A DNA stretch of 64,000 bases from Candidatus Iainarchaeum sp. (GCA_028700115.1 JAQVTI010000003.1:2714-66713), one strand, 5' to 3'. Numbered from the stretch's first letter, positions 17,178 through 39,640 are shown. The notes: a model not told the origin generated them from the letters alone. Numbers and translations: made by a program.

Positions 17178-17196
17178 AAAAATTGGTGGTGAATAA

Positions 17197-17547: not shown

Positions 17548-17570
17548 ATTCCTTAAAAAGAGGTATTTAT

Positions 17571-21077: not shown

Positions 21078-21129
21078 AAAAGAATTGGTTCTATATTATA
21101 TTTGTAATATAAAAATTATTGGGATATAT

Positions 21130-22302
21130 ATGGACATTAAAAAAATAACATTATTTATTATATTTATAATATTAATTACAACAAATATATTTGCAGAAAC
21201 AATAGAAACTAAAAGCTTTGAAGAACTTAATTTTAATACAATGATTGTAAAAAAAAATACAGAAATTTGTTTTGAAAATAAATTTGATGAACTTAAAACA
21301 AAGACAGATAGTAAATATTATTTGACATTAATAATTGAAAATTATGTAAAAACAACAAAAGATTTAAACATAAATATATATCTTAATGATAAATTTGAAA
21401 AAAATATACAAAATAATAAAATATTAAAAGAAAATATTATTAAATTAAAAAATATATCGAATATTAAAGAAAATAATTTAAAAATATGTATATCTAATAA
21501 TTATATTCCAGAACTAATTATTTCTAAAAAAAGTAAAATAGGAACTTATAATCTTGCAGAAATTTTAGAAACAAATTTTTATCAAATAACTCCAGAAAAA
21601 GGTTATATTAATGACTTAATACCTGTAGAAATATTTATAAAAAATACAGGTTCTGGAAAAATATTTGTAAATTTATATAATGCATATGAAACATATTTAA
21701 AAAATTCAAACTTAGATAATGTGTCAGGCCAAACAACCTATTTTGGAGAAATATACCCTGGAGAAATAAAATCAATAAAATATTTTATAAAAACAGATAA
21801 TTCAAAAACTTATTTGACACCAAGAGCATATGTAGAATATATAGATGAATTTGATAAAAAAAAGACAATATATACAAATCAAAATATAATAAATCTATCA
21901 GAAAATCAAGAAAAAATAAAAGCAATAATAGATATTTCTAAGAATTCTACCCAAAACAATACTCTTTCTGGAAATTTAATAATTATTAATCAAAGTTTAG
22001 AAAATATTAAAAATATATATATAATTCCAGAATATGAAGAATATATAACACTTGAAAAAGAAGAAATTAAACAAATAAATAAAAAAGATATAATAGAAAT
22101 ACCATTTAAAATAAATACACCTGAAATTAAAGAATATTCTTTATTATTTAAAATAAATTATGAAGATCAAGAAAAAATAAAACAAACAACAACAGAAAAA
22201 ATAAAAATAAATACAGAACCAGAAAATACAAAAATACTAACTATAACTTCTATATTAATTGCACTAACAATTATATTATTTATATGGGTATTTAAATTTT
22301 AA
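21130..22302 (+). CDS. Surface protein with CARDB/S-layer-like beta domains and a C-terminal TM anchor
   Basis: Signal peptide MDIKKITLFIIFIILITTNIFA. Segments such as DLIPVEIFIKNTGSGKIFVNLYN and LSGNLIIINQSLENIKNIYIIP look like CARDB/COG1361-type domains. A C-terminal TM helix is present. I moved the start to ATG 21130; the ORF track has TTG 21085. Confidence 0.5.
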   Translation: MDIKKITLFIIFIILITTNIFAETIETKSFEELNFNTMIVKKNTEICFENKFDELKTKTDSKYYLTLIIENYVKTTKDLNINIYLNDKFEKNIQNNKILKENIIKLKNISNIKENNLKICISNNYIPELIISKKSKIGTYNLAEILETNFYQITPEKGYINDLIPVEIFIKNTGSGKIFVNLYNAYETYLKNSNLDNVSGQTTYFGEIYPGEIKSIKYFIKTDNSKTYLTPRAYVEYIDEFDKKKTIYTNQNIINLSENQEKIKAIIDISKNSTQNNTLSGNLIIINQSLENIKNIYIIPEYEEYITLEKEEIKQINKKDIIEIPFKINTPEIKEYSLLFKINYEDQEKIKQTTTEKIKINTEPENTKILTITSILIALTIILFIWVFKF

Positions 22303-22324
22303 AAAAAATTAAATCTTTAAAAAA

Positions 22325-24067
22325 TCAAATAATTCTATGAAATAATTTATCCATATCTTTCATACTTAAAAAAATAACACTTGGTCTGCCATGTGCACAA
22401 ATAACACTATTATTAACCTTACTTAATTTTGAAATTAAATTTATTTGCTCAGAAATACTTAATTTACAATTTGCTTTTATAGATTGTTTACAAGACTTTA
22501 ATTTAATTAAATTATCTTTTAATTTAGAAAAAGACATCACATTATTTTTTAAATCATCTAAAACATTTATGAAATAATTTTTATCAAAAAGTTTATTTAA
22601 AAAAATTGGAATAGAAATTAAATTTATTGAAAAATTATCAATAATTTCAAAATTAAAACCAAGTTTTTTAATTAAATCTAAATTTTTATATAAAACCTCT
22701 GCTTGAGATTCATCTAAAGAAATATATATTGGAGAAATTAAATTTTGAAAATCTACACTTTCTGAAAATTTTAGTCTATTTTCTTCTAAGTTAATTCTTT
22801 CATCAGCAGCGTGTTGATCAATAATTAAAAATCCATCTTGGGTCTCACAAACAATATAAGTATTATGAATTTGCCCAACAATAGAAGTTATTTCTTTATC
22901 TAATAATTTTATATTTTTAAAAGAAGAATAATCATAAAAAGACTGTTGAGAATTATTAGAAGATAAATTAGTAAAAAAAGAATTTGGGGTAGAAAAATCT
23001 TTTAAATTAGAATAACTTAATTTAGTAGAAATATTTAAATTATTAGACAAATCAGACTTTGCAAAATAATTAAAATTACTAACATCATTAGAAATACTTT
23101 TACCTAGATGCTTATCTAAAATTTTTGTTAAATCTTTTCTAAGCTCGGATAAAAATAATAATTCATTAAATAATTTAACAAATCTTTTTTTGGGATGTAC
23201 ATTTACATCAACAGTAGTAGAATCTATATCTATAAATAAAATAAAAAAAGGCTTTTGTTGAATCATTAAATAATCTTTATAAGCACTTGTAATTGCTTTA
23301 TATATTTGAGAAGAAAAAACAAATCTATTGTTTATAAATAAATAACTATTTGGCAAAAAAATAGGTTTTGCAGGATTACTTAAAAAACCTTTTAACTTAA
23401 ATAAAGAATTATCTATATTTATAGGAATTGTCTTTAATTTAATTTCATTACCAAAAATTTGAATCATACGATTTTCTAAAGAAGTAGCTTGTAAATTTAT
23501 ATTTTTTTTCTCAGAAGAAAAATTGAAACTAATGTGAGGATACATTAAAGAATACGCTATAAAAACATCATATAATTTAGAAAACTCAAAAGATTTAGAT
23601 TTTAAAAATTTTTTTCTAACAGGAATATTTTCAAATAAATTTTTAATAATAAAAGTAGTTCCTTTAAGTGAAGGACAACTTTCTAAAACCCCATTATAAA
23701 AAGAATAACCCTCTCCAGAATTATTTGTAGATGAAATTATTTTTAAATCAGAAACTGCATTTATACTTGCTAATGCTTCTCCTCTAAAACCAAATGAATT
23801 TAAAGAAAAAAGATCATCTATAGACAAAAGCTTACTTGTAGTGTGTCTTTCTAAACAAATTTTTAAATCATCTTTAGAAATACCATTACCATCATCTTTA
23901 ATTTCTATAAGATCTATTCCTGAATTTTTAATAGAAATTATTATTTTATTAGCAAAAGCATCAATAGAATTTTCAATTAATTCCTTTAAAATATCTGCAG
24001 GAGATTCAATTACTTCTCCGGCACTAATTAAATTAATTGTATTATCATTTAATTTTTTAATAACCAT
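22325..24067 (-). CDS. mutL: DNA mismatch repair protein MutL (endonuclease type)
   Basis: GHKL ATPase motifs ELIENSIDA, DDGNGI and FGFRGEALAS are present. The C-terminal DQHAADERINLE matches DQHA(X)2E(X)4E, followed by CAHGRPS. Confidence 0.92.
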   Translation of the reverse strand: MVIKKLNDNTINLISAGEVIESPADILKELIENSIDAFANKIIISIKNSGIDLIEIKDDGNGISKDDLKICLERHTTSKLLSIDDLFSLNSFGFRGEALASINAVSDLKIISSTNNSGEGYSFYNGVLESCPSLKGTTFIIKNLFENIPVRKKFLKSKSFEFSKLYDVFIAYSLMYPHISFNFSSEKKNINLQATSLENRMIQIFGNEIKLKTIPINIDNSLFKLKGFLSNPAKPIFLPNSYLFINNRFVFSSQIYKAITSAYKDYLMIQQKPFFILFIDIDSTTVDVNVHPKKRFVKLFNELLFLSELRKDLTKILDKHLGKSISNDVSNFNYFAKSDLSNNLNISTKLSYSNLKDFSTPNSFFTNLSSNNSQQSFYDYSSFKNIKLLDKEITSIVGQIHNTYIVCETQDGFLIIDQHAADERINLEENRLKFSESVDFQNLISPIYISLDESQAEVLYKNLDLIKKLGFNFEIIDNFSINLISIPIFLNKLFDKNYFINVLDDLKNNVMSFSKLKDNLIKLKSCKQSIKANCKLSISEQINLISKLSKVNNSVICAHGRPSVIFLSMKDMDKLFHRII

Positions 24068-24078
24068 AAATATTCAAC

Positions 24079-26535
24079 TCAAATAATTTTTTTTTGTTCA
24101 TTCTTAAATAAAATATTTTTAGAAACATCAGATTTTAAAAAAACATCTTCCTCTAAATCTTTTTGAATTTCTAAAGCTCTATTTATAACAATATCATTAA
24201 TTCCAGACATTTTTGCAACTTGTATACCGTAACTTTTATCAATACCGCCTTCAATTAATTTATGATAAAAAGAAAGCTTTCCAGAATCTTCTTTTGCAAT
24301 AACATGATAATTTTTAATACCTAAAAACAAATCTTGCATTTTATTTAATAAATGATAATGTGTTGCCACCAAAGTTTTACAATTAACAAAATTATTCAAA
24401 TATTCTATAATAGACCAAGCCAAACTTAAACCATCATAAGTACTTGTACCTCTACCAACTTCATCTAAAATTACAAAACTTTTATTAGTTGCATTATTTA
24501 AAATATATGCAACTTCAGACATTTCAACTAAAAAAGTACTTTGTCCATGAATAATATCATCAGAAGCACCAACTCTAGTAAAAACAGCATCAATAAAACC
24601 AATTTCACTATCATTAGAAGGAATAAAACAGCCTGCATATGCTAAAATAATACTTATACAAACAGAACGCATATAACTACTCTTACCAGCCATATTTGGA
24701 CCAGTTATAATCATAGTTTTATTAGTTATATTTAAATTACAATCATTTGGAACAAAATCAGTTAATTTTTCAATAATTGGATGCCTTAAATCTTTAAAAT
24801 ATAAATGATCTGAATTATTTAATTTTGGTTTAAAATAATTATTCTCCAAACTAATTTGAGCATTTGAACAAATTACATCTAAAAAACCTATATTTTTAGA
24901 TATATCTAAAATATCTTTTTGATATTTTAAAACCTCTTTACAAATATCTAAAAAAATGTTATATTCAAGTTCTAATCTTTTCTCCTTAGCATTTAAAATT
25001 AAACTTTCTTTTTCAGAAAGAATTTTTGTTGTAAATCTTTCAGCATTAACTAAAGTTTGCTTTCTTTCAAAATCATTTGGAACTTGCTTAGCTTGCATTT
25101 TTGGAATTTCTATATAATATCCAAAAATTTTATTAAATTTTAATTTTAAAGACTTAATATTTGTTTCTAATTTTAATTTTTCTTCATACTCTAATAAAAA
25201 AGAATTTATAGATTTATGAATGTTAACTAAACTATAAAGTTCATTAGAAAAATTTGGTTTAATAAAATTACCTTCTCTAACACTAAAAGGAGGGTCTTGA
25301 ACAATAGAATTATCTATTAAAGAAATTAATTTATCTAAAGATTTTAAATTATTATTAATTGTTGAAAAATAAATTGAATTTAAATTATTTAAAATATTTT
25401 TAATTTTAGAAACAACTAATAAACTTTGTTTTAAAGAAATTAAATCTCTTGGATTAGAATTACCAAAACCAACTTTACTAATAATTCTTTCTATATCAGA
25501 AATATAACTTAAATTAGTTTTTAAATCTTCCAAAATATAAATATCATTTATAAATTCAGAAATACAATCATATTTATTATTATTATAAACTAAATCTAAA
25601 GAAGGATGTAATAAATCAAAATATAATTGTCTATAACCCATTGCAGTTTTAGTTTTATTAATAAAACCAAATAAACTATTTTTAAGATTATTAGAACTTA
25701 AACTATTTATAAGTTCTAAATTTTTTATAGTTTTTCGATCTAATTTTAAATATTTATTAAAAGAATAAGATTTAATTGACCTAATATAACTTAAATCAGA
25801 AAACTGGGTTTCTTTTAAATAATTTAAAGCATTACTACTAGAAATAATTATATGATTTTTAGAATCAATACCAAAAGATTCTAAAGAACTTAAAGAAAAA
25901 TGATCTAATAATTTCTGTCTAGATAAAACTAAATTTAAATCATCAGTATAATTTATAATAACTAAAGGAAGTGTTTTTTTAATCAAATCAACTTTATCAA
26001 AACTTTTTAAAATATTTTTAGACAATAATAATTCTTTTGGCTTTATTGAAGAAATTTCATTTAATAAACTAGAAAAATCATCAAATTCACAAACTTTAAA
26101 ATCACCTGTAGTTATATCTATTAATGAAAACCCATATATATTATTTACAAAAGAAATAGAACCTAGAAAATTATTTTCATAAGAATCACTAAAAAGAGTA
26201 CTTGGTGTAATAACTCTAATTACATCTCTTTTAACAAGACCTTTTGCAAACTTAGGATTTTCCATTTGTTCACAAATTACAACTTTTTTTCCAGATTTAA
26301 CTAATTTAGATATATATGGATCTATAGAGTGATATGGAATTCCAGCTAAAGGAGCTTCAGTTAAACCCTTTCCTCTTTTTGTTAAAGTTATATTTAATAT
26401 TCTTGAGGCTTCTTTAGCATCATCAAAAAACATTTCATAAAAATCCCCAGCTCTAAATAATAATATACCTTCTGGATATTTTTTTTTAGTTTCAACATAT
26501 TGTTTCATCATAGGTGTTAAAGATATATTGTTCAT
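24079..26535 (-). CDS. mutS: DNA mismatch repair protein MutS (bacterial MutS1 type)
   Basis: N-terminal mismatch-binding motif GDFYEMF, Walker A GPNMAGKSS and DEVGRGTSTYDG. It lies directly upstream of mutL on the same strand. Confidence 0.93.
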   Translation of the reverse strand: MNNISLTPMMKQYVETKKKYPEGILLFRAGDFYEMFFDDAKEASRILNITLTKRGKGLTEAPLAGIPYHSIDPYISKLVKSGKKVVICEQMENPKFAKGLVKRDVIRVITPSTLFSDSYENNFLGSISFVNNIYGFSLIDITTGDFKVCEFDDFSSLLNEISSIKPKELLLSKNILKSFDKVDLIKKTLPLVIINYTDDLNLVLSRQKLLDHFSLSSLESFGIDSKNHIIISSSNALNYLKETQFSDLSYIRSIKSYSFNKYLKLDRKTIKNLELINSLSSNNLKNSLFGFINKTKTAMGYRQLYFDLLHPSLDLVYNNNKYDCISEFINDIYILEDLKTNLSYISDIERIISKVGFGNSNPRDLISLKQSLLVVSKIKNILNNLNSIYFSTINNNLKSLDKLISLIDNSIVQDPPFSVREGNFIKPNFSNELYSLVNIHKSINSFLLEYEEKLKLETNIKSLKLKFNKIFGYYIEIPKMQAKQVPNDFERKQTLVNAERFTTKILSEKESLILNAKEKRLELEYNIFLDICKEVLKYQKDILDISKNIGFLDVICSNAQISLENNYFKPKLNNSDHLYFKDLRHPIIEKLTDFVPNDCNLNITNKTMIITGPNMAGKSSYMRSVCISIILAYAGCFIPSNDSEIGFIDAVFTRVGASDDIIHGQSTFLVEMSEVAYILNNATNKSFVILDEVGRGTSTYDGLSLAWSIIEYLNNFVNCKTLVATHYHLLNKMQDLFLGIKNYHVIAKEDSGKLSFYHKLIEGGIDKSYGIQVAKMSGINDIVINRALEIQKDLEEDVFLKSDVSKNILFKNEQKKII

Positions 26536-26584
26536 AATATATTATATAATACAAAAACATTTTAAATGAATTTAAAAAAAGAAA

Positions 26585-26658
26585 TGGTCCCGGGGGGATT
26601 TGAACCCCCGACACATAGGTCTTCAGCCTATTGCTCTCCCAGACTGAGCTACGGTACC
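26585..26658 (-). tRNA. tRNA-Phe (GAA)
   Basis: Hand-folded cloverleaf: GGTACCG TA GCTC AGTCTGGGA GAGC A ATAGG CTGAAGA CCTAT GTGTC GGGGG TTCAAAT CCCCC CGGGACC A. The anticodon is GAA. There is one A4:G69 mismatch in the acceptor stem, and no encoded CCA. Confidence 0.85.
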
Positions 26659-26667
26659 TTTAACTGA

Positions 26668-26742
26668 TGAGCTCGATGGGATTCGAACCCACGACACCTG
26701 GATTAAGAGTCCAGTGCTCTAACCAGACTGAGCTACGAGCCC
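26668..26742 (-). tRNA. tRNA-Lys (CUU)
   Basis: Hand-folded: GGGCTCG TA GCTC AGTCTGGTTA GAGC A CTGGA CTCTTAA TCCAG GTGTC GTGGG TTCGAAT CCCAT CGAGCTC A. The anticodon is CTT. Confidence 0.88.
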
Positions 26743-26758
26743 CTTCTAAATAAAAAAA

Positions 26759-26832
26759 TGAATCCAGGGGGATTTGAACCCCCGACACCTGGATTAAAAG
26801 TCCAGTGCTCTACCAAACTGAGCTATGGATCC
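26759..26832 (-). tRNA. tRNA-Lys (UUU)
   Basis: Hand-folded: GGATCCA TA GCTC AGTTTGGTA GAGC A CTGGA CTTTTAA TCCAG GTGTC GGGGG TTCAAAT CCCCC TGGATTC A. The anticodon is TTT. Confidence 0.88.
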
Positions 26833-26976
26833 TAAAATTTAGGTTAATTAAAATATTTTAACTTAGAAATAAATAAAAATTGATTTATTATAAGATATAT
26901 ATTATATGTAAGTAAACATTTATAAATTAAATTGTATTATTAAAAAAATAAAAATATATCTAAAAAAAAGAAAAAT

Positions 26977-27501
26977 ATGATTAAAATAATAAAACTAGAT
27001 CATAGACCATTAAGAGACAAAAGAATTACAACTCACTGTGCATTAGTATCTAGAACTTTTGGAGCAGATGAATTTTTATATGCAGGTGTATGTGATAAAG
27101 AACTTGAAAAAAACATAATAAATACTAATGAAAGATGGGGAGATCTAGGATTTAAAATAAAATTTATTAAAGAACCATTGGAATTCGTTAAAAAATATAA
27201 AGGAAATGGAACTATCATACATCTTACTATGTATGGTGGTAAAATTTTAGAATATATTGAAAATATTAAAAAAAATAAAAAAGAAATGCTAATAATAATT
27301 GGGGGACCTAAAGTTCCAGGAGAATATTATAAACTTGCAGATTTTAATATAAGTGTTACTAATCAACCACATAGTGAAGTTGCAGCACTTGCAATAATTT
27401 TAAATTATATTAATCCAGAATATTTAGAAAAAGATTTGTTTAAAAGTAATATAAAAATAATTCCAAATAAAGACCATAAAAATGTTATTAACTTAAAATA
27501 G
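26977..27501 (+). CDS. trm56: tRNA (cytidine56-2'-O)-methyltransferase aTrm56 (SPOUT)
   Basis: LDHRPLRDKRITTHCALVSRTFGADEF matches the conserved aTrm56 N-terminus. The size is about 175 aa. Confidence 0.8.
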   Translation: MIKIIKLDHRPLRDKRITTHCALVSRTFGADEFLYAGVCDKELEKNIINTNERWGDLGFKIKFIKEPLEFVKKYKGNGTIIHLTMYGGKILEYIENIKKNKKEMLIIIGGPKVPGEYYKLADFNISVTNQPHSEVAALAIILNYINPEYLEKDLFKSNIKIIPNKDHKNVINLK

Positions 27502-27549
27502 TTTTGTAACTTAAATATATTATATTTTAATAAAAATATTTGTGATAAT

Positions 27550-28119
27550 ATGAATAAATTAAAAAAAGAACTATTAAATGATAAAAATACAATTAAATTT
27601 TTAGAACAAATTGCAGGACCGATTGCAATAGATGTTGTAAAAATTTTTAAAAAAGAAGCATTATCACCTGAAATGATTTCTAAAAAACTTGATGAAAAAA
27701 TTACTAATGTAAGAGCTACATTAAATAGTTTACATTACAGGGGAATTGCATGCTATAAAAAAACAAAAACTAATAACAATTTATATGAATTTCTATGGGA
27801 AATTAAATTTAAAAAAATTATAGAAAATATACATATTCAAGAAATAAAAAAATATAAAAAAATAGAAATGGATATTAATTCAAAAAGTACACATGATTAT
27901 TTTGTGTGTCCTAAAAAATGTATAGAAGTTCCTTTTGAAATTGCAGCAGCATATAATTTTAAATGTCCTAATTGTGATTCTAGTTTAGAAATGGTAGATA
28001 TAAAAAAAAGATTAGCATTACAAAAAAGAAAATTAAAAACAACAAAAGAAAATATTGAAAAATTAGAAATTCTTTTAGAAAAAATAAAAGACGATACAAA
28101 AGGATATATTTGTGAATAA
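27550..28119 (+). CDS. tfe: Transcription factor E (TFE, TFIIE-alpha homolog)
   Basis: N-terminal winged helix (ISKKLDEKITNVRATLNSLHYRGIACY) plus a zinc ribbon (CPKKC...CPNC). Confidence 0.75.
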   Translation: MNKLKKELLNDKNTIKFLEQIAGPIAIDVVKIFKKEALSPEMISKKLDEKITNVRATLNSLHYRGIACYKKTKTNNNLYEFLWEIKFKKIIENIHIQEIKKYKKIEMDINSKSTHDYFVCPKKCIEVPFEIAAAYNFKCPNCDSSLEMVDIKKRLALQKRKLKTTKENIEKLEILLEKIKDDTKGYICE

Positions 28120-28217
28120 ATTAATTAAATATATTAGATTTGTTTAAATAGTTTTTGGTACATAATTAATTTACTAATTATAAATAAATAAACTATTTAA
28201 AATTAATCTTATTTTTT

Positions 28218-28292
<75 letters not shown>

Positions 28293-28529
28293 TTATTTAT
28301 ACTAATTTTAAAAATTATAAAAATAAAGTAAGTAAACATAACCTAAACTCAATATATCTTGGACAAATATGCTAAATTGAAAAAATATTACTTAAAACTA
28401 AAAAAAAACTTGAAATTAAAAAAAAACATTAAAATAACTATTAAATTGCAAATAAAGCCAAAAATAAATGTATTTTAAAAATTAAAGACTAATTTAAATA
28501 TAAAAATCAATTATAAATATATTAAAAGT

Positions 28530-28792
28530 AGTAATTACCATGGTAATTACTTAAAAAATAATTTTAAAATAAAATAAAAAATAATATACTACATAAATTG
28601 TAATTTACTTAAAAATATAAAATTATTAAATAAAATTAAATTATATAATATAATTTAAAACAAAATATATTTATATATAAAAATAATAAAATTTATTAAA
28701 AATAAGACTTATAATTACAGTAATTACCATAATTAACTACAAATAATTACTGTAATTACCAAATACTTTAAAAACATTACGGTAATTACCAT
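28530..28792. promoter_or_regulatory. Array of GTAATTAC-core palindromic sites (candidate operator or origin-recognition repeats) flanking a nearly pure A/T stretch
   Basis: A 22-bp perfect palindrome, AGTAATTACCATGGTAATTACT, lies at 28530-28551. Three related ~20-bp units lie at 28711-28730 (ATAATTACAGTAATTACCAT), 28743-28762 (ATAATTACTGTAATTACCAA) and 28773-28792 (AACATTACGGTAATTACCAT), spaced 32 and 30 bp apart. A TATA-like CTTTAAAAA at 28766-28774 sits 23-31 bp before ATG 28797. Confidence 0.6.
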
Positions 28793-28796
28793 ATAT

Positions 28797-29300
28797 ATGA
28801 ATTTAATAAATACTATAAAAAATATATTTAAAAAAAAAGTTAAACATCTTGAAAAAGATTTAAATTATAATTCTAATTTAAATCAAAATGAATTAGATAA
28901 TAATAAAAATGAATTAAATAATAATAAAATACAAATTAATGAAAATATAGAAAATCAAATATATATTAAAAAAACAACAGATAATAAAAATATACATGAA
29001 ATACAAACAATAACTATACAAGAATTAAAAAATAATTTAAATACAATTTGGGATATTATTAAAATAAAAGAAAATACTCAAGCAGAACATATAATTAAAT
29101 CAATTCCTAGTGATAACTGGACAACTATGGATGAATTAAGACAAAATATAAAACTTGAATTTGGTATTGAATATAAAAATGAAAAAAGTTTATATCCTTA
29201 TTTAAAAACATTAACAGATATAAATTTAATAAAAGTAAATAATACTGGAAAAAAAAGAACATGGAAAAAAAATATTATTATATTAGATAATAATAAATAA
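28797..29300 (+). CDS. Hypothetical protein with an N/K-rich N-terminal half and a probable C-terminal winged-helix domain
   Basis: 167 aa. The C-terminal segment WTTMDELRQNIKLEFGIEYKNEKSLYPYLKTLTDINLIKVNNTGKKRTW looks like a wHTH. The ATG lies 5 bp after the last palindromic repeat. Confidence 0.45.
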   Translation: MNLINTIKNIFKKKVKHLEKDLNYNSNLNQNELDNNKNELNNNKIQINENIENQIYIKKTTDNKNIHEIQTITIQELKNNLNTIWDIIKIKENTQAEHIIKSIPSDNWTTMDELRQNIKLEFGIEYKNEKSLYPYLKTLTDINLIKVNNTGKKRTWKKNIIILDNNK

Positions 29301-29315
29301 TATTTTATAAAATAA

Positions 29316-29909
29316 TTAATTTACTAAAGAATTATATTTTTCATAAAAAGAAGATAATAAATCTGATTTTTTATAAACTTCTTTAAACCAATTAAAATTT
29401 GTTATTTTATTACATTCTTTTAATATATATTTTATATAATCTTTATTATTATTATTAGTTCTAATAATATAATCTAATTCTGTTAATAATAAACTAGATT
29501 TGTTATCTAAATTAATAATATTATAATTACTTAAAAAATTTTCTAAACATTCAATTACACTTTCTAAATCAACTTCTAATTTTTCAATAATATATTCTAC
29601 TTTCCAATCACCTTTATTTTTCCATAAATGTGCTGGATTTTCACCAGTTTTAAAATAATTTATTATTAAATTTTCATAATTTAATGGAATAATAAAACTA
29701 TTTTTTCCAGGTTTTAAATGAGGTATATCTGAAAGTAAACCTTTTCTTGTATAAGTATATACTTTTTTATTTTTTTTAGTTACATTTTGTTGATAACCAT
29801 ATAATGATCTAAATACTTTTTGATATAAATAAGATGAATGATTTATATCTTTATTAAATATAAATTTATATTTAATATAATTAGAAATAATTTTATCCAT
29901 CATAGACAC
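29316..29909 (-). CDS. Hypothetical protein
   Basis: 197-aa ORF preceded by a GGGGTG SD-like sequence. I recognise no family. Confidence 0.45.
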   Translation of the reverse strand: MSMMDKIISNYIKYKFIFNKDINHSSYLYQKVFRSLYGYQQNVTKKNKKVYTYTRKGLLSDIPHLKPGKNSFIIPLNYENLIINYFKTGENPAHLWKNKGDWKVEYIIEKLEVDLESVIECLENFLSNYNIINLDNKSSLLLTELDYIIRTNNNNKDYIKYILKECNKITNFNWFKEVYKKSDLLSSFYEKYNSLVN

Positions 29910-30026
29910 CCCTTACTTCTTGTATTAATTATTTAATAATAATTAAAATTTTATTATGTATATAATATATATAATATATATATTTATATATATTATAAAA
30001 ATATAAAAAAATAAAATTAGATATTA

Positions 30027-30386
30027 TTATTTTCTTGAATATTTACTTCTATAACCAATATATTTTTTTCTTATAGCAGCTTCTTTTGATTTTTCTTCAA
30101 AATTATCTTCATTATGTACAATTTCTTTTTTTCTATTAGTAATAGGTACATTACCTGCATTTATTAATAATATATCATCAGCAGATATTACTTTATTATA
30201 AGGTATACTATGTTCTGTAATTATTTTTTTAGCTTCTATTTTAGAATTTACTTTTAATGGTTGTGTTGTAATTGTTTCAATTACACCTTGTTCTAAATTT
30301 ACAATTAAATCGTGAACTTTACCTCTATAAGTTGCATCTGTTTGATATATATCCATTCCAAATAATTTAGATATTCTTGTAGTCAT
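30027..30386 (-). CDS. PRC-barrel domain protein with a basic C-terminal tail
   Basis: MTTRISKLFGMDIYQTDATYRGKVHDLIVNLEQGVIETI fits the PRC-barrel pattern. The start is set at ATG 30386 because a GGAGGAAT SD lies 7 nt upstream. The ORF track extends to 30449. Confidence 0.6.
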   Translation of the reverse strand: MTTRISKLFGMDIYQTDATYRGKVHDLIVNLEQGVIETITTQPLKVNSKIEAKKIITEHSIPYNKVISADDILLINAGNVPITNRKKEIVHNEDNFEEKSKEAAIRKKYIGYRSKYSRK

Positions 30387-30580
30387 TTTTATTCCTCCAA
30401 TATAAATATATTTTAATTTATTAAATATTATACTATAAAAGTTATTCAAAACATTTATATATGTTTTTATTTAAATAAACAAATTTTTATGTTTAATTAA
30501 GTTTTATTTCTAAAATTATTAAAAAATAAAAAAAAAATAAAAAAAATAAAGAAACAATACAGGAAGTTAGGGGTATCTCT

Positions 30581-30955
30581 TTATAGTTTGTTAATTTCTT
30601 TTAAAATTAAATCACATTTATTGATTAAATTATTAATTTCTCCAATTTCTTCTTTAAAATTTAAATATTCTTTAAATTCTTTATTATTTTTATAATTTCC
30701 ATTTTCTATAATTTTATTATATATTTTCATTTTTGTATTAATTTTTTTATTTAATTTATTTAATTTATTTTGTAATTTTTTTTTATAAAATGTTAATTTT
30801 AATTTTACTATTTTTATCTGATTTGGTTTAATAAATATTCTTTGCATATTATTTATATGTGTATATTTTTTACTAATAAATTCTAATTTTTTATTAAATT
30901 TATTTATATTTTTATTAATAACCATAATATCACTTTTTAAATTTTTTATATCCAA
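30581..30955 (-). CDS. Hypothetical K/N-rich coiled-coil protein
   Basis: 124-aa ORF with heptad-like low-complexity sequence. It lies between the PRC-barrel gene and the recombinase gene on the same strand. Confidence 0.35.
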   Translation of the reverse strand: MDIKNLKSDIMVINKNINKFNKKLEFISKKYTHINNMQRIFIKPNQIKIVKLKLTFYKKKLQNKLNKLNKKINTKMKIYNKIIENGNYKNNKEFKEYLNFKEEIGEINNLINKCDLILKEINKL

Positions 30956-30986
30956 GATATTTTGTATTTAATATATTTTAAAATAA

Positions 30987-31832
30987 TTATAAATTATCTA
31001 ATGGGTTTTTTATTTTTTTTAGTTTATTTGTATTTACTTTTGTATATATTTGAGTTGTATTTAAATTTGTATGCCCTAATAATTGTTGAATATATCTAAT
31101 ATTTACATCATTTTCTAAAAGAGATGTTGCAAATGAATGTCTTAAAGTATGTGGAGATACTTTTTTATTTATTCCTGATTGTTTTGCAGATTCTTTTAAA
31201 AATTTTTGAATAGTATCTACAGATAAATTTGCACCTTTACTTGTACAAAATAAATATTTTGATTTAATTATATTTTCTCTTTTTTTTAAATATTTTCTAT
31301 ATTTTTCAATCCATTTTTTAGATAATATAATTATTCTATCTTTATTTCCTTTTCCACTAACTACTTTTCCAACTGATTCTATAAAATCTAAATCATCTAT
31401 TTTCATATTTACACATTCTGATATTCTTGTGCCTGTTGAAAATATAAATTCTATAATTAATTTATTTCTTTTATTTTTTGTATTTTTTATTAATAATTTA
31501 ATTTCATCGTTTGTTAATGTTGTTGGTAGTTTTTTTGATTTTTTTGGAAGTTTTATATCTATATTTATATTTTTTTTAAGATATATTTTATAATAATGAT
31601 TAAATATAGAAATTATTAAATTAATTGTAGTAGAGCTTATTTTTTTAATATTTTTAATGTATGATAAATAATTAATAATATCTTTTGATTCTATATTATT
31701 TATATCTTTTTGTATATATTTTTCAAATAAATCTAAATATAAACAATAAATATCAATAGTATTTTTACTATATCCTTCTATATTTAATGAATTTTTAAAA
31801 TTTTCTATATTTTTTGAATAATTTTTATTCAT
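30987..31832 (-). CDS. Tyrosine recombinase, XerA/XerC/D-like
   Basis: An N-terminal SAM-like core-binding domain is present. The catalytic residues appear in order: STGTRISE (Arg), GKGNKDRII (Lys), HTLRHSFAT (HxxR) and LGHTNLNTTQIYTKV (His/Tyr). Confidence 0.88.
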   Translation of the reverse strand: MNKNYSKNIENFKNSLNIEGYSKNTIDIYCLYLDLFEKYIQKDINNIESKDIINYLSYIKNIKKISSTTINLIISIFNHYYKIYLKKNINIDIKLPKKSKKLPTTLTNDEIKLLIKNTKNKRNKLIIEFIFSTGTRISECVNMKIDDLDFIESVGKVVSGKGNKDRIIILSKKWIEKYRKYLKKRENIIKSKYLFCTSKGANLSVDTIQKFLKESAKQSGINKKVSPHTLRHSFATSLLENDVNIRYIQQLLGHTNLNTTQIYTKVNTNKLKKIKNPLDNL

Positions 31833-32085
31833 ATTTTTCTTTTTTTCTATGTAATCTATAAATTATAATATAGATATGTTTATTAAGTAATTCAATATTC
31901 TATATTAATTATATTAAATTAATTTTAATATTTAAATAAATTTATAAACTTTTTTATTTTTTTAAAGAAATATTTACTTTTCAAACAAAAGCATATAAAA
32001 ACATATTAGTGTACATTTTATAATTAAATATATTTTTTATAATTTTTTAAATTAAGGGGTTTAAAATTATAATATACATATATAA

Positions 32086-32613
32086 TTGGTGGTTTTTTTG
32101 ATTTCTTCAAAATTTCAAGTTTATACAGGAAATGGTAAAGGAAAAACAACTGCCGCAATTGGACTTGCCTTAAGAGCTTCTAAAAAATATAAGGTTGCTT
32201 TTATAAAATTACTTAAATTTAAAGAAAGTGGAGAAGATTATTTTCTAAAAAATAATACTAATATAATTTTTAAAAAATTTGGATGTAAAAATTTTATAAT
32301 TAATTCAAAACCAGAAAATGAACATAAAAAAATAATAAATAAAGCTTTTAAATTTATATTTAATTTATTAGATAAAAAAGAATTAGATTTATTAATATTG
32401 GATGAAATAAATATAGTTATATATTATAATTTAATTAATTTAGAAGACGTTATTAAAATAATAAATATTTGTAAAAATAAAAATATAGAATTAGTTTTTA
32501 CCGGAAGATATTTTAATAAAAATTTAAAAAAATATGCAGATTTAATTACAGATTGTAAGGAAATTAAACATTATTATAAATATAGAAAAGCAAAAGATGG
32601 AATAGAATTTTAA
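32086..32613 (+). CDS. ATP:cob(I)alamin adenosyltransferase (CobO/BtuR type)
   Basis: VYTGNGKGKTTAAIGLALRA P-loop, LDEIN Walker B-like motif and the C-terminal KAKDGIEF typical of the CobA/CobO family. The start is TTG. Confidence 0.75.
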   Translation: MVVFLISSKFQVYTGNGKGKTTAAIGLALRASKKYKVAFIKLLKFKESGEDYFLKNNTNIIFKKFGCKNFIINSKPENEHKKIINKAFKFIFNLLDKKELDLLILDEINIVIYYNLINLEDVIKIINICKNKNIELVFTGRYFNKNLKKYADLITDCKEIKHYYKYRKAKDGIEF

Positions 32614-32625
32614 GTAGGTGTTTTT

Positions 32626-35238
32626 ATGAATATGTTAACTAAAATTAAAAAAATTACCCAAGTTAAAAAAAGAAAAGGTGAAATTGTTTTTTTTGATAAA
32701 AATAAAATTTCTCTTGCAATTGAAAAAGCAATGAAATCTGTAGATTCTTTTGATGAAAATAAAAATAAAGATTTAACTGAAAAAGTTATTTTAATTTTAG
32801 AATCTAAATTTATAAATAAAATTCCATCTGTGGAAGATGTTTCTGATGTAATTGAATATGTTTTAATTGCTTCTGAGCTTATAAATGTTGCAAAATCTTT
32901 TATTTTATATAGAGAAGAAAGAAGAAAATTAAGAGAATCTTATATTGAAGAGATAGATTGTGATATTGTAAAAGATTTAAAGGAGAAAAAAATTTCAATT
33001 ACAAAACAAGCAATTAATGTTTTAAATAATTCAAATCAATTTAAAGATTTAGGTTTAATTATTTTTTTAGATAGATATTCTATAAAATCTAAAAAAAATG
33101 AAATTGTAGTAGGCGATTTAGTTGTAGTTATTTCAAAAAATGATCCTAAATATCCAAAAAAAGATATAGGTATTGTTAAAGATATTTCTGAAAATAAATT
33201 TGATGTTAAATTACATATGTTAACTGGTTTATATGCTGAAAAAGAAAATAATTATGAATTTAATCAAAAATTAAGTTTTTGTGAAAAACCATCTGAATCT
33301 GCAAATGATGTTTATAAAAGAGTTGCAAAAGCAGTTGCATCTGTAGAAAAAGATGATTTATTAAAAACAAAATGGTTTGATGAATTTTATTATATGTTAA
33401 AAAATAATCATATATCTCCTGGTGGTAGAATTTTAACTGGTGCAAGTATAGATGAATTAGGTTATACTTCTAATTTAACTTTATATAATTGTTATGTTAT
33501 TCCTTCTCCAAAAGATTCAAGAAAATCAATTGTAAGAGATGCACTTTATAACATGGTTGAAATTTTTTCAAGAGGTGGGGGGGTTGGTTTATCTCTTTCT
33601 ACATTAAGACCTTTATTTGCATATGTAAAAGGAGTTCATGGTAGATCTTCAGGTTCTGTTTCTTGGGGTGGTTTATATTCTTATGTAACTGCTTTAATTG
33701 AACAAGGAGGTTCAAGAAGAGGAGCTTTAATGCTTATGCTTGATGATTGGCATCCAGATTTAATTTCTTTTATTGAATCTAAAACTAAAACAGGCACTTT
33801 AGAACATGCTAATATATCTGTAAAAGTTTCAGATAAATTAATGCAAGCTATAAAAAATGATGATGATTGGTATTTTGAATTTCCAGATTATGAAAATATA
33901 AATTATAAAGATATTTATGATTCTGAATGGGATGGTGATTTAAATTCTTGGAAAGAAAAAGGTTACCCTACAAAAATTTATGGTTCTATAAAAGCAAAGG
34001 ATATTTGGAATAAAATAATTTTTTCTGCATGGAAAAGTGCAGAACCTGGTGTTGTTTTTATGGAAAGGTATAATAAAATGAGTAATAGTTATTATTATAA
34101 TAAAATTATTGCAACAAATCCATGTGGTGAACAAGGATTACCTGCTTGGGGTGTTTGTAATTTAGGTCATTTAAATTTAGCATCTTTTGCAGAATATATT
34201 GGACAAGATGATGTTGGCCCTCTTTATGAGCTTAATTTTGAAAAGCTTAAAAAAGCTGCAAGTGTTTTAACTAGATTTTTAGATAATGTTATTGATTTAA
34301 CACCTTATTTTTTTGAAGAAAATAAAAATGTACAAAAATCTGAAAGAAGAATTGGTGGTGGAACTTTAGGTCTTGCAGAACTTTTAATTAAGTTAAGATT
34401 AAAATACGGTTCTCCTGACAGTATAAATTTAATTAATAAAATTTATAGTTTAATTACAACTGAAATGTATTTAACTTCTACACATATTTCTGAAGAAAAA
34501 GGTTTTTTTCCAAATTTTGATAAAGAAAAATTTTTAGCAAGTAAGTTTATACAAAATTTACCTAAAGATGTTTATGAGAAAATAAAAGAAAAAGGTATTA
34601 GAAATGTATCTTTAACAACACAAGCACCAACTGGTTCAACTGGGACAATGATTGGTACATCTACTGGAATCGAACCTTATTTTGCTTTTAAATTTTATAG
34701 ACAATCAAGACTTGGTTTCCATGAAGTAAACATACCTATTGCTCAAGATTATGAAAAAAATGGAGTTCTTCCAGATTTTTTTGTATCTGCAAATGATTTA
34801 AGTCCAGAAGATCATGTTAAAGTCCAAGCTGCAATACAAAGATGGACTGATTCATCTATTAGTAAAACCGCAAATGTTCCTGCAAATTTTACTGTTGAAC
34901 AAACTGCAAAATTATATGAGCTTGCATATGATTTAGGTTGTAAAGGTGTTACAATTTATAGAGATTCATCTAGAGATGAGCAAGTTCTTTCAATAAATAA
35001 AGATCAAGAAAAGATAAATCAAAATGCAATTAATAAAAAAACACAAGATAAATTAAATTTTAATAAAAAAAATAATGTTATTTTTGAAGATAAAAAAGAA
35101 AATGAAGATGTTGTTTATGGAGCTGAAGCAGGAAATATATGCCCTGTTTGTAAAAAAGGAAAAATGATTAAACTAGGTGGTTGTACAGAGTGTTCTGCAG
35201 GTTGTGGTTTTAAGGGTTCTTGTGATATGAAGCAATAA
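32626..35238 (+). CDS. nrdJ: Adenosylcobalamin-dependent ribonucleotide reductase (class II, NrdJ)
   Basis: N-terminal ATP-cone (VKKRKGEIVFFDKNKISLAIEKA), active-site NPCGEQ and SISKT motifs, and a C-terminal CPVC...CTEC zinc ribbon. Confidence 0.9.
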   Translation: MNMLTKIKKITQVKKRKGEIVFFDKNKISLAIEKAMKSVDSFDENKNKDLTEKVILILESKFINKIPSVEDVSDVIEYVLIASELINVAKSFILYREERRKLRESYIEEIDCDIVKDLKEKKISITKQAINVLNNSNQFKDLGLIIFLDRYSIKSKKNEIVVGDLVVVISKNDPKYPKKDIGIVKDISENKFDVKLHMLTGLYAEKENNYEFNQKLSFCEKPSESANDVYKRVAKAVASVEKDDLLKTKWFDEFYYMLKNNHISPGGRILTGASIDELGYTSNLTLYNCYVIPSPKDSRKSIVRDALYNMVEIFSRGGGVGLSLSTLRPLFAYVKGVHGRSSGSVSWGGLYSYVTALIEQGGSRRGALMLMLDDWHPDLISFIESKTKTGTLEHANISVKVSDKLMQAIKNDDDWYFEFPDYENINYKDIYDSEWDGDLNSWKEKGYPTKIYGSIKAKDIWNKIIFSAWKSAEPGVVFMERYNKMSNSYYYNKIIATNPCGEQGLPAWGVCNLGHLNLASFAEYIGQDDVGPLYELNFEKLKKAASVLTRFLDNVIDLTPYFFEENKNVQKSERRIGGGTLGLAELLIKLRLKYGSPDSINLINKIYSLITTEMYLTSTHISEEKGFFPNFDKEKFLASKFIQNLPKDVYEKIKEKGIRNVSLTTQAPTGSTGTMIGTSTGIEPYFAFKFYRQSRLGFHEVNIPIAQDYEKNGVLPDFFVSANDLSPEDHVKVQAAIQRWTDSSISKTANVPANFTVEQTAKLYELAYDLGCKGVTIYRDSSRDEQVLSINKDQEKINQNAINKKTQDKLNFNKKNNVIFEDKKENEDVVYGAEAGNICPVCKKGKMIKLGGCTECSAGCGFKGSCDMKQ

Positions 35239-35261
35239 ATTTAAATTAAAAGGAGATTATT

Positions 35262-35708
35262 ATGTTTAATATAAAAAGATTAACAGAAAGTGCTAAATTA
35301 CCTGAAAAAAATAATTTTACAGATGCTGGATATGATGTTTTTTCTGATCAAAATATTATTATCCCTGCTGGAAAAAGAGAAACCATTTCAATAGGTATTT
35401 CTTTTTCTTTTGATAAGCCAAATTATTTAAGAGAAAATGAAACTATTTATTTAAGAGTTGCTCCAAGAAGTGGTCTTGCATCTAAAAAAGGTATTGATGT
35501 TTTTGCAGGTGTTATTGATTTAGATTATAGAGGCGAATTAAAAGTATGTTTATTTAATTCTTCTGATATTGATTTTGAAATTAAAAAAGGAGATAAAATT
35601 GCTCAGATTATCCCTACAATTATTTTAAATTCAGAAATTAAGGAAGTAAATTTTTTAGATCAAACAGATAGAGGAGAAAAAGGTTTTGGTTCTTCTGGAA
35701 ATAAGTAA
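35262..35708 (+). CDS. dut: dUTP diphosphatase (trimeric dUTPase)
   Basis: The motifs DAGYDV, PRSGLASKKGI, GVIDLDYRGE, GDKIAQ and RGEKGFGSSG appear in canonical order. A GGAG SD is present. Confidence 0.9.
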   Translation: MFNIKRLTESAKLPEKNNFTDAGYDVFSDQNIIIPAGKRETISIGISFSFDKPNYLRENETIYLRVAPRSGLASKKGIDVFAGVIDLDYRGELKVCLFNSSDIDFEIKKGDKIAQIIPTIILNSEIKEVNFLDQTDRGEKGFGSSGNK

Positions 35709-35794
35709 TTTTTTTAAATTTTTAAATATAAACATTCTTTTTATAAGCTTTGTCTATTAAATATATTTATAAATTATAAAAAAGATGTTTATTT

Positions 35795-36268
35795 ATGAAA
35801 AGTTATATTTTAAAAAATAAAAATTTATTATTATATATTTATTTATTTATTTTTCTAATTATTGGTTTTTTTATTGGTTTTTTTATTTTTAATAGCATAT
35901 ATTCTATCGGTAATTCTTCTAAAGTTTTAAATAATTCTTTTCAATCTTTAGAAACAAATATTAATTCTTTTTATTTTTTAGAAACAAATGAAATATCTAA
36001 AGATTCATATGTTTTTATTGGAGGTAAAACTAATTTAAATAATTTTGTTTATTTAGAAAAGGATTATTATAATTCAATTATTAAAAATAATATAACCGTA
36101 GAAAATGCTTTGAAGAAAAATAATAATCAACACAAAGTTATTTTAGTTGGTTGTCATTGTATGAAAATTGAAAACGGTTATTATTTTATAGTAGGTAATT
36201 GTGATTGTAAAATATCACATTGTGATTATCAACAAAATTATATTTGTGAAACAGGAAATATTATGTGA
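35795..36268 (+). CDS. Membrane-anchored cysteine-rich protein (paralog A), hypothetical
   Basis: N-terminal TM helix and a C-terminal CHC-x12-CDC-x4-C-x7-C pattern. It shares ENALKK and the Cys pattern with the next gene. Confidence 0.5.
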   Translation: MKSYILKNKNLLLYIYLFIFLIIGFFIGFFIFNSIYSIGNSSKVLNNSFQSLETNINSFYFLETNEISKDSYVFIGGKTNLNNFVYLEKDYYNSIIKNNITVENALKKNNNQHKVILVGCHCMKIENGYYFIVGNCDCKISHCDYQQNYICETGNIM

Positions 36269-36666
36269 TTTTTATGGATCAAAAAATTCTTTTTATAATT
36301 TTATTAGGTTTTATTTTTGGTTTTTTAATTTGCTTTTTTATATTTATCCAAGTTTCTAATTTAGGTTATTCTTCTAAGATTATTTCTAATAATTTGGATT
36401 ATATTAATAATTCTAATTTATATAAGATTGAAATAAATAATAAAAATATTTTTATAGAAAATAATTATATTGAAGAATTTTTAAATAATTTGAATTTACA
36501 AGAAAATGCTTTAAAAAAATCAAAAAATAATAATATCATTTTAGAAAGATGTAAATGTGTTTTAACAAAAGACGATATTATTTATATTATGGAAACTTGT
36601 GATTGTGGTAGTAATTCTTGTCAAGAAATTAATGCTATTTGTAAAGATAGTATTTCAGTAGATTAA
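36265..36666 (+). CDS. Membrane-anchored cysteine-rich protein (paralog B), hypothetical
   Basis: N-terminal TM helix and a C-terminal CKC-x13-CDC-x4-C-x6-C pattern. The start is GTG 36265 (overlapping the upstream stop) or ATG 36274. Confidence 0.5.
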   Translation: MIFMDQKILFIILLGFIFGFLICFFIFIQVSNLGYSSKIISNNLDYINNSNLYKIEINNKNIFIENNYIEEFLNNLNLQENALKKSKNNNIILERCKCVLTKDDIIYIMETCDCGSNSCQEINAICKDSISVD

Positions 36667-36682
36667 TTTTTAGAGATTTTAT

Positions 36683-37306
36683 ATGTTTAATAAAAAAAAT
36701 TTATTTTTAAGAATTTTTTATTTTTTAATAATTTTTTTTATTTTCATATATTTATCATGTTTTCAAAGTTCGTTATCTATTTTATGGTTTTGTAAAATTT
36801 CAATAATTCTTTTAATTATTGCTTTAATTTCTAATTCTGATATTCTTTATAGTTGTGTTTTAATTTCTCAAAGTTTTGTTTTTTTAATTTTTTTATTAGA
36901 AGTTGTTTCTTTATTTTTATTTAATGTTTCTTTATTTAATTTATCTAATATTTATAATAATTTTTTTGATTGGATAATAAGTATTTTTTATCATGTAGTT
37001 ATATTTTTAATTCCATTACATTTATTAATTTTAAAAAGAAAATTTATACAAGACACTTGGTTTTTGTCTTCTTTTTTATTTTTATTTTTTTCTGTAGTAA
37101 TATATGTTATAGATAAATTTAATTTACCAATTGATGGGTCTATTAATTGTGTTTTTTCGTGTAATAATTTTGGAATTATAACTTATGCATATAATTTAAT
37201 TTATCAATATATTCCAATTGCAAATTTTATTATAAATTGGATCATTCTTTCTTTTTTATTCTACATTACTAGTTTATTTTTCGATAAAATTCTAAATAAT
37301 AAATAA
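36683..37306 (+). CDS. Polytopic membrane protein, hypothetical
   Basis: 207 aa with about 6 hydrophobic helices. I recognise no motif. Confidence 0.45.
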   Translation: MFNKKNLFLRIFYFLIIFFIFIYLSCFQSSLSILWFCKISIILLIIALISNSDILYSCVLISQSFVFLIFLLEVVSLFLFNVSLFNLSNIYNNFFDWIISIFYHVVIFLIPLHLLILKRKFIQDTWFLSSFLFLFFSVVIYVIDKFNLPIDGSINCVFSCNNFGIITYAYNLIYQYIPIANFIINWIILSFLFYITSLFFDKILNNK

Positions 37307-37321
37307 ATTTTTATATTTAAA

Positions 37322-39529: not shown

Positions 39530-39640
39530 ATTTATTTATTTATTTAAGATGTATATTTATTTGTTTTAAATATGTATCTTTAAATTTATTTTATTATATA
39601 TATTATTGAAAAATAATTTTAAAAGTTTTTTTATATATTT

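Follow-up and report, generated by a model that had tools for sequence, protein, structure and literature searches.

An orc1/cdc6 gene usually, though not obligatorily, lies beside an archaeal replication origin, and to our knowledge replication in DPANN archaea has never been studied experimentally. Skew of the bacterial style, with a single switch, is rare in archaea, having been recorded in 18 of 224 RefSeq genomes and in one DPANN genome, that of Candidatus Forterrea (PMC7111523), where the origin predicted from skew adjoins cdc6 (PMC5905446). In Thermococcales, the GTTG/TGGT skew has its minimum at the experimentally mapped oriC and its summit at dif, the origin being sharp and the terminus broad (PMC2958812); origin recognition boxes (ORBs) have the core motif TTCC..GAA (PMC1904270). 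Sulfolobus oriC3 is specified by WhiP, a non-Orc1 winged-helix initiator encoded beside it (PMC3607249). Here, we analyzed a 64,000-nucleotide stretch of DNA from Candidatus Iainarchaeum sp. (GCA_028700115.1 JAQVTI010000003.1:2714-66713; hereafter, the window), a member of the Iainarchaeota (Diapherotrites, DPANN), in which the compositional bias between the two DNA strands reverses at a short spacer within a conserved gene module. We interpret this reversal as a replication switch point and, with moderate confidence, as most likely a chromosomal replication origin.

The window has a G+C content of 21%, and proteins identical to its own are listed at NCBI as 'Candidatus ainarchaeum sp.' A first-pass annotation had proposed from hand counts that codon third-position bias is strand-specific and reverses regardless of gene orientation, and this was borne out when we called 56 open reading frames (ORFs; cut-off 100 amino acids, aa) and counted their four-fold degenerate sites separately by gene strand. 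On the left arm (Table 1), the plus strand carries 904 A and 373 T in plus-strand genes and 493 A and 245 T in minus-strand genes; on the right arm, the corresponding counts are 735 A and 1297 T, and 222 A and 511 T (left versus right, Fisher p = 1.9e-85 and 2.2e-45). The four-fold AT skew of the plus strand is accordingly +0.42 (plus-strand genes) and +0.34 (minus-strand genes) left of 28.1 kb, and -0.28 and -0.39 right of 30.5 kb. The hand counts themselves were close to ours: 28 A and 12 T in DP2 at 3481-3600, recounted as 27 A and 13 T; and 22 T and 10 A among 34 codons in nrdJ at 33541-33720, recounted as 22 T, 10 A and 2 G.

The same annotation had reported a C excess on the plus strand to the left and a G excess to the right. 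No such polarity is visible in (G-C)/(G+C) at four-fold sites, which is uninformative here because G+C makes up only ~3% of those sites (G or C at 104 of them on the left arm and at 144 on the right); at two-fold sites, where we measured G/C asymmetry instead, the polarity is present. Coding-strand G/(A+G) and C/(C+T) at these sites are 0.019 and 0.113 in plus-strand genes and 0.114 and 0.034 in minus-strand genes on the left, and 0.079 and 0.038 in plus-strand genes and 0.014 and 0.104 in minus-strand genes on the right, with p values between 1e-9 and 1e-20 in all four left-versus-right contrasts. Because the same shift occurs in all four gene classes (arm by orientation), the bias tracks the DNA strand, independent of gene strand, on both arms. 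Two-fold and four-fold sites together show keto/amino coupling, G going with T and C with A on one strand, and the coupling of G with T was also found in the related loci L009, L013, L076, L093, L094, and L080. Intergenic DNA, considered for the left arm, has the sign of the genes there (plus strand A-rich, AT skew +0.20). Counting ~3 kb recovered past each end of the window, the sign is constant for at least 31 kb leftward and at least 37 kb rightward: the left-arm pattern extends into SecD/SecF, ~3 kb left of the window, and the right-arm pattern continues, more weakly, for ~3.5 kb past it. Exceptions to the sign of an arm are GrpE-DnaK-DnaJ (57098-60971), with a skew near zero, and EF1a/S10, with weak skew. 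The phenomenon is ordinary leading/lagging compositional asymmetry.

Genes around the reversal are arranged in the order tRNA-Phe/Lys/Lys (minus strand), aTrm56, TFE, and tRNA-Met (plus strand), spacer IG-1, a winged helix-turn-helix (wHTH) gene called WH here, p197 (minus strand), spacer IG-2, the genes for a PRC-barrel protein, p124, and an Xer-type recombinase (all minus strand; the last is XerA below), CobA, and NrdJ. The first-pass annotation had located the switch at 28.2-29.3 kb; recomputed, its center is at ~30.0-30.2 kb, about 1 kb further right, in IG-2, the spacer that separates p197 from the PRC-barrel gene. Fitting two segments to the four-fold sites by likelihood placed the change at 30.2 kb, and a codon-family log-likelihood ratio (LLR) trained on the arms gave a change-point (LLR minimum) at 30183, with a support interval of three log-likelihood units at 30057-30351. 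By codon LLR, WH and p197 lean to the left type, whereas the PRC-barrel gene, p124, and XerA lean to the right type (sums of -8.1 for p197 versus +3.7 for the PRC-barrel gene); mean codon LLR is -0.05 for aTrm56 and -0.08 for TFE, versus about -0.2 in the left arm. When each module gene was scaled between the left-arm and right-arm values of its own lineage, the medians over 12 lineages were 0.76 for Trm56, 0.89 for TFE, 0.87 for WH, 0.69 for p197, 0.11 for PRC, and -0.04 for XerA, so that the cross-lineage jump (0.69 to 0.11) sits between p197 and PRC. In L098, where three inserted genes separate WH from p197, the switch remains at the p197-PRC boundary. This insertion and the gene map therefore tie the switch to IG-2 and not to the GTAATTAC repeats of IG-1; together with the codon LLR they led us to discard IG-1 as the switch point.

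Table 1. Features of the window, with coordinates counted from its first nucleotide
Feature	Coordinates	Strand	Remarks
Left arm	1..28119		Plus strand rich in A+C at synonymous sites, whichever way the genes run
tRNA-Phe, tRNA-Lys(CTT), tRNA-Lys(TTT)	26585..26832	-	ARAGORN and Rfam; all transcribed away from the switch
aTrm56 and TFE	26977..28119	+	Pfam PF01994, PF02002; left edge of the conserved module, skew already damped
tRNA-Met(CAT)	28217..28293	+	ARAGORN
Spacer IG-1	28294..28796		503 bp; A-rich on the plus strand; carries the GTAATTAC repeat cluster
Distal perfect palindrome GTAATTACCATGGTAATTAC	28531..28550		Read directly in the sequence
Three direct units TAATTACnGTAATTACC	28712-28728, 28744-28760, 28775-28790	+	31-32 bp apart
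WH (wHTH gene)	28797..29300	+	167 aa; low-complexity disordered N-terminus, conserved C-terminal winged helix of ~90 aa
p197	29316..29909	-	Orphan protein of 197 aa; last gene of left-arm composition
Spacer IG-2	29910..30026		117 bp, 7% GC; mapped switch point
PRC-barrel protein	30027..30449	-	Pfam PF05239, E 9.5e-7; first gene of right-arm composition
p124	30581..30955	-	124 aa; looks coiled-coil; weak Pfam matches only, several to coiled-coil families
Xer-type tyrosine recombinase (XerA-like)	30987..31832	-	PF00589 (2.1e-46), PF13495 and PF02899 (N-terminal SAM-like domains); right edge of the module
Right arm	30500..64000		Plus strand rich in G+T at synonymous sites, whichever way the genes run

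The core order aTrm56-TFE-tRNA-Met-spacer-WH-p197-PRC-XerA recurs in more than 25 other assemblies, among them species whose module proteins are only 35-50% identical, whose G+C content is 35-50%, and whose outer flanks are wholly different. Skew in the relatives was assessed by gene-level regression of the strand-by-side effect, which is robust to gene-specific codon usage; it replaced site-level z-scores across 32 loci, the significance of which was overstated because of such usage. An origin-type sign with a best-fit switch 0.5-2.5 kb right of the WH start was obtained for eight lineages: the window, L013, L009, L022, L076, L094, L093, and L080. Including four more with a less sharply placed transition (see below), the 12 lineages of the same sign span 21-47% GC, 35-86% protein identity, and different outer flanks. 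Several other relatives have no detectable skew.

At the left side of the module, aTrm56 and TFE adjoin it in most relatives, even in distant ones whose GC content reaches 50%, and tRNA genes left of the module lie on the outward strand in 36 of 36 cases (14 lineages with any found), a count of orthologous and hence not independent genes. In L093 (9320-9425), the tRNA-Met gene, for which ARAGORN made no call, appears to be split by a probable intron, an insertion of ~30 nt that follows the anticodon-stem region. A generic repeat search of 28.1-32.1 kb was swamped by low-complexity AT matches, and a cross-species screen for shared 11-mers was equally noisy, so IG-1 was analyzed by targeted motif search and alignment. 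Every exact copy of GTAATTACC in the 64 kb falls within 28531-28790, and of the 8-mers in the window GGTAATTA clusters most strongly (approximate p 1.3e-7 over 3969 words). The distal palindrome, which recurs as an identical 20-mer in L020 and has equivalent distal copies in L003, L009, L013, and L018, is separated from the three direct units by an almost pure A/T stretch of ~160 bp. The last unit stops 7 bp short of the WH start codon, and the WH-proximal units align column-for-column in five species while the remainder of IG-1 has diverged. Rfam matched no noncoding RNA family in the 503 bp of IG-1 and sees only the tRNAs. In L015 (50% GC; 9560-10000), the spacer between tRNA-Met and WH is not AT-rich and contains five copies of '(C/G)(A)TTACTTT' at a spacing of ~62 bp and a single canonical GTAATTAC.

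The WH protein gave no Pfam domain, and its 96 homologs are named only DPANN or 'archaeon' except in one assembly labeled as a bacterium. The C-terminal 90 residues are 70-80% conserved among them, and the AlphaFold2 (AF2) model has a mean predicted local distance difference test score (pLDDT) of 85-96 per 10-residue block over residues 91-160. The best Foldseek matches are winged helices of the Fur/PerR/ArsR/PadR/BlaI kind (E ~5e-3); no homology to WhiP or Cdt1 was detected. We infer that WH may bind the GTAATTAC repeats upstream of its own gene. Some database records of this family appear to be mislabeled. A contig of 6,976 bp with one WH/p197 pair (protein hits P0014/P0219) is filed under the bacterium 'Candidatus Vampirococcus lugosii', which is probably archaeal contamination of that assembly, and several WH homologs carry the JGI name 'transposase', one 'MutL' (P0010, P0028, P0035, P0055), in what look like annotation carry-over errors.

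The neighboring p197 always adjoins the switch, and its 59 homologs are confined to the same lineage. It has no Pfam match, and its AF2 model (pLDDT 89; predicted template modeling score, pTM, 0.83) found no fold match in the PDB (best E 0.16) or in BFVD (best E 0.026); it may represent a new fold. IG-2, which separates p197 from the PRC-barrel gene, holds TTATGTATA at 29954-29962 followed by (TA)n-rich sequence. A T[TA]ATGTA motif occurs within 160 bp upstream of p197, mostly at 30-55 bp, in 47 of 48 distinct loci, and several distant relatives (L085, L093, L015) have a perfect TTATGTAT-N7-ATACATAA palindrome in IG-2; this dyad or motif stands at the expected position of the p197 promoter. 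IG-2 is among the 100-bp windows of lowest GC in the loci of L076 (5%), L093 (19%), L080, and L094, and the AT-richest 100 bp of the locus fall within IG-2 or IG-1 in L076 (5% G+C), L093, L080, L066, and L087. AT-richness says little at 21% GC, and in L015 (50% GC) IG-1 is not AT-rich. In L013, a run of Ns (~11310-11410), that is, an assembly gap, falls within the (TA)n tract of the p197-PRC spacer, which suggests that a long AT microsatellite, difficult to assemble, lies right at the switch. Further right, p124 is present only in closer relatives, being absent from L003, L018, and L015. A second small PRC-barrel gene (86 aa, PF05239) is found in the NCBI gene calls at ~10606-10866 (minus strand), inside a gap of our own calls (10570-11286) and below their 100-aa cut-off.

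If the switch is an origin, forks would start in or beside the very AT-rich IG-2 and move outward, and the GTAATTAC cluster, 1.2-1.5 kb to its left, would be bound by the adjacent WH protein, which could regulate its own gene, work as a centromere-like element, or serve as an origin accessory; the initiator would be encoded elsewhere or would not be Orc1-like. The strand that would lead under the canonical rule is poor in C and rich in T and G, a signature expected if cytosine deamination is commoner on the lagging-strand template, and such an excess would predict the low C/(C+T) and high G/(A+G) seen on the G+T-rich strand. Several observations favor an origin. Across the switch, third-position GC skew changes from negative to positive and AT skew from positive to negative, which is a minimum of cumulative GC skew and thus the canonical origin-type polarity; both arms point away from ~30.0 kb; and the reversal is abrupt, within ~2-5 kb. 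Transcription runs away from the switch on the left in the tRNA-Phe/Lys/Lys, EF1a, and S10 genes and on the right in DnaK and the genes for pilin-like proteins (class III signal peptide), and the local synteny is unusually stable. The polarity agrees with that at the mapped oriC of Thermococcales, and further points in favor are the switch of the same sign in related lineages, the low GC of IG-2 or IG-1 in relatives of higher GC, and the replication and deoxynucleotide genes nearby. The first-pass annotation had likewise read the polarity as origin-type, and the negative-to-positive change with its G-T coupling stands; the step from polarity to origin does not follow from it, because the polarity of GC skew is inverted, with a C-rich leading strand, in four haloarchaea (Norais et al.; PMC1868953), and sign alone is therefore not decisive in an uncalibrated archaeal lineage.

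That precedent is one of several points that weigh against an origin. Gene orientation overall has no co-directional excess (30 of 56 genes). As the first-pass annotation had stated for the window, no Orc1/Cdc6 is encoded there (Pfam scan of all ORFs of at least 100 aa, and Orc1 hidden Markov model, HMM), and the Orc1 HMM found none in 86 related loci either; nor does an orc1/cdc6 gene occur within 10 kb of the module in any of 28 metagenome loci with usable flanks on both sides (10 kb in full for 24) or in another six relatives. Canonical ORB/mini-ORB sequences (TTCC..GAA core, up to 3 mismatches) are matched 11 times in the window, versus 10.7 expected, and never in 28-32 kb. A search with the Orc1-1 protein of Sso, whose sequence we checked against PDB 2QBY_A, returned only crenarchaeal proteins and so gave no calibration of polarity for this lineage, and a Nanobdellota complete-genome preprint contains no skew data. 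The amplitude of the skew is damped over ~5.6 kb (~27.0-32.6 kb) instead of stepping at a single base, unlike what is expected of one fixed start site. Among the relatives, L055, L085, L098, and L087 have the same sign with a transition that is fuzzier or fitted 5-8 kb further right, and polarity at the module is weakly to moderately opposite in L033 (NPIE01008194.1; G/C measures), L044/L045 and L097 (A/T measure), and L025/L060. In these last loci the switch is at or within ~1.5 kb of the module, and L097 is the only one with a different flanking gene order. Under gene-level regression, the large negative score of L033 becomes smaller and does not vanish. Part of the opposite sign reflects gene-specific codon usage shared with low-skew relatives (MutS/L and ribonucleotide reductase, RNR, genes); the residue may be due to forks running in the reverse direction from another origin or to a reversed mutational bias. 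XerA, finally, lies ~1 kb from IG-2 and keeps its place in the module in nearly all relatives, and xer genes adjoin dif in Sulfolobales, some haloarchaea, and streptococci.

An alternative is that the locus is a replication terminus or chromosome-dimer-resolution region, where forks converge at ~30 kb, XerA acts on a nearby site, WH on its own repeats forms a fork trap like that of RTP, and the leading strand is A+C-rich, that is, inverted, in most of the lineage. We regard this as possible but rather unlikely. In Bacillus subtilis, RTP at Ter is a fork trap and the rtp gene is preceded by inverted-repeat Ter sites, a layout resembling that of the winged-helix gene preceded by its own repeated sites here; xerA is a fixed member of the module, and xerA/dif modules are known from Sulfolobales and, upstream of the xerA operon, from haloarchaea. 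The skew inversion coincides exactly with dif in bacteria and in Methanosphaera stadtmanae, and a conserved dyad lies at the mapped switch. The lack of orc1/cdc6 within 10 kb in any locus, the haloarchaeal precedent for inverted polarity, and the terminus-type sign of L033, L044, and L097 under the canonical rule fit convergence of forks as well. Yet the skew inversion is origin-type under that rule, and a terminus would require that polarity be inverted in the most strongly skewed lineages, at least 10 of them, whereas it is canonical in Forterrea and the thermophilic archaea. We took dif to be 28 bp with 11-bp imperfect inverted arms, a 6-8-bp spacer, and TAA-N6-8-TTA inner ends; the site of Thermococcus kodakarensis validated by chromatin immunoprecipitation, TTTTGATATAATGTACCTTATATGACAA, has a TAA-N6-TTA center (PMC11840125). 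The dyad is not of this kind, its inner arms ending in GTAT/ATAC, and it occupies the position expected for the p197 promoter; no conserved site with TAA-N6-8-TTA inverted repeats was found in the module of the higher-GC relatives L093, L080, L087, and L076. No RTP-like structure is among the top 50 Foldseek matches of WH. At a terminus, the tRNA genes, EF1a, and S10 would all run head-on to forks, and the locus is among the most syntenic, whereas terminus regions are usually plastic.

To all readings other than an origin or a terminus together we give only a small chance. One of these, which we consider very improbable, is that codon-usage selection, transcription-coupled mutation, or a chromosome-domain boundary effect changes here independently of replication. 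Gene-specific codon preferences do exist (those of EF1a/S10 and DnaK stand out in the window, and in low-skew relatives MutS/L and RNR genes favor C-ending codons), and they can mimic weak 'switches' in 20-kb samples; but genes of both orientations on both arms, 56 of them with unrelated functions, shift alike relative to the DNA strand, the left-arm intergenic DNA is also A-rich on the plus strand, and a transcription-linked cause is disfavored because its effects would follow the gene strand. The first-pass annotation had also allowed for an inversion breakpoint or a chimeric join, and to a chimeric join, a recent inversion end-point, or a mobile element integrated by tRNA-Met with its own integrase we now assign a negligible probability, although a tRNA gene and a tyrosine recombinase gene are separated by 2.7 kb that include small hypothetical ORFs, and the composition of 28.8-30.4 kb is neutral. 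Over 17550-33307 the window matches an NCBI metagenome-assembled genome (MAG) contig with 100% identity, the core gene order is present in the many other assemblies and species already described, and a switch of the same sign in 12 diverged lineages cannot stem from a recent event. Integration at tRNA-Met was rejected in its own right: its 3' end is single-copy, no second copy of att type having been found, and the module genes are conserved in relatives. The supposed 'island' genes are core genes, because they are conserved at 35-86% identity even in relatives of ~50% GC. For practical purposes, rearrangement or chimerism is refuted.

Returning to the origin, we offer as an unlikely but specific version of it that initiation is not Orc1-linked and is set by a lineage-specific cassette, in which WH, the iteron-like GTAATTAC repeats, and p197 flank the AT-rich spacer. 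This would be a new archaeal origin/initiator system of WhiP-oriC3-like logic, coupled to XerA and to the PRC-barrel protein, which may act in cell division.

The wider gene content of the window includes archaeal informational genes (PolD DP1/DP2, EF-1a, S10, Elp3, aTrm56, TFE, RFC-S, Cdc48, topoisomerase IA) as well as bacterial-type MutS/MutL, NrdJ, dUTPase, type IV pilus genes, and GrpE-DnaK-DnaJ. Genes of replication and deoxynucleotide metabolism are clustered around the switch (PolD DP1/DP2, RFC-S, NrdJ, dUTPase, TopA, MutS/L), and a DHH/DHHA1 (RecJ/Cdc45-like) gene just right of the window end (L101 2703-3782) joins the local DP1/DP2, RFC-S, TopA, NrdJ, dUTPase, and Cdc48. Bacterial-type MutL and a full five-domain MutS are encoded at 22325-26535 (minus strand) in this DPANN archaeon, syntenic with the module in closer relatives and absent there in distant ones. 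The three genes of the GrpE-DnaK-DnaJ operon have four-fold AT skews of 0.00, -0.10, and +0.01, versus about -0.3 around them, and a higher G+C content of 25-29%, which fits an operon acquired from bacteria fairly recently or one under strong codon selection. Within the GrpE coding sequence, a 12-bp tandem repeat is found at ~57210-57344.

The locus provides a candidate DPANN replication switch point at base-pair scale, conserved over an order-level lineage, with defined cis elements and three uncharacterized conserved proteins. If it is an origin, it would represent an archaeal oriC that lacks both canonical ORBs and a neighboring orc1, and would offer a direct handle on initiation in ultra-small archaea; if it is a terminus, it would be an archaeal terminus with an xerA-linked module in a lineage of inverted skew polarity. 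On either interpretation, Iainarchaeota assemblies can be rotated and validated with the module as a practical anchor.

Compared with the systems introduced at the outset, and with Xer/dif and RTP/Ter, the locus shares features with each. Like the XerS-difSL module of streptococci and the xerA-dif modules of Sulfolobales and haloarchaea, it has a Xer gene ~1 kb from a conserved dyad at a skew inversion; unlike them, its polarity is origin-type by the canonical rule, and the dyad is without the TAA-N6-8-TTA core. The small winged-helix gene preceded by its own repeated sites recalls B. subtilis RTP/Ter, although RTP is not among the top 50 structural matches of WH. With Candidatus Forterrea (PMC5905446) it shares the phylum Diapherotrites and the rare bacterial-type single-switch skew, there too in a DPANN archaeon; the Forterrea origin is cdc6-linked, whereas the switch here is at a wHTH/p197/PRC/XerA module with no cdc6 nearby, and the skew is mainly A/T at four-fold sites because of their low G+C. 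The sharp origin-type switch with a G/T-rich leading strand is like that of oriC in Pyrococcus abyssi and other Thermococcales, as are the presence of PolD and other replication genes in the neighborhood and the AT-rich spacers with clustered repeats around small genes, which recall cdc6 between two ORB clusters (PMC1904270); unlike in Pyrococcus, there is no cdc6/orc1 within 10 kb, the repeats are of GTAATTAC type and not TTCC..GAA ORBs, and PolD, adjacent to oriC there, is 23-27 kb away. As in oriC3-WhiP, a winged-helix gene lies beside presumed repeated sites at a candidate origin without adjacent orc1; by contrast, the WH fold matches generic Fur/ArsR/PadR proteins, a role for it in initiation would be pure conjecture, and the switch is 1.2 kb from the repeats. 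By analogy, then, the locus appears closer in logic to oriC3-WhiP than to Pyrococcus oriC, which it resembles in polarity, sharpness, and repeat-flanked small genes, and it is best described as a conserved Iainarchaeales replication switch module without linkage to a canonical initiator, most likely oriC.

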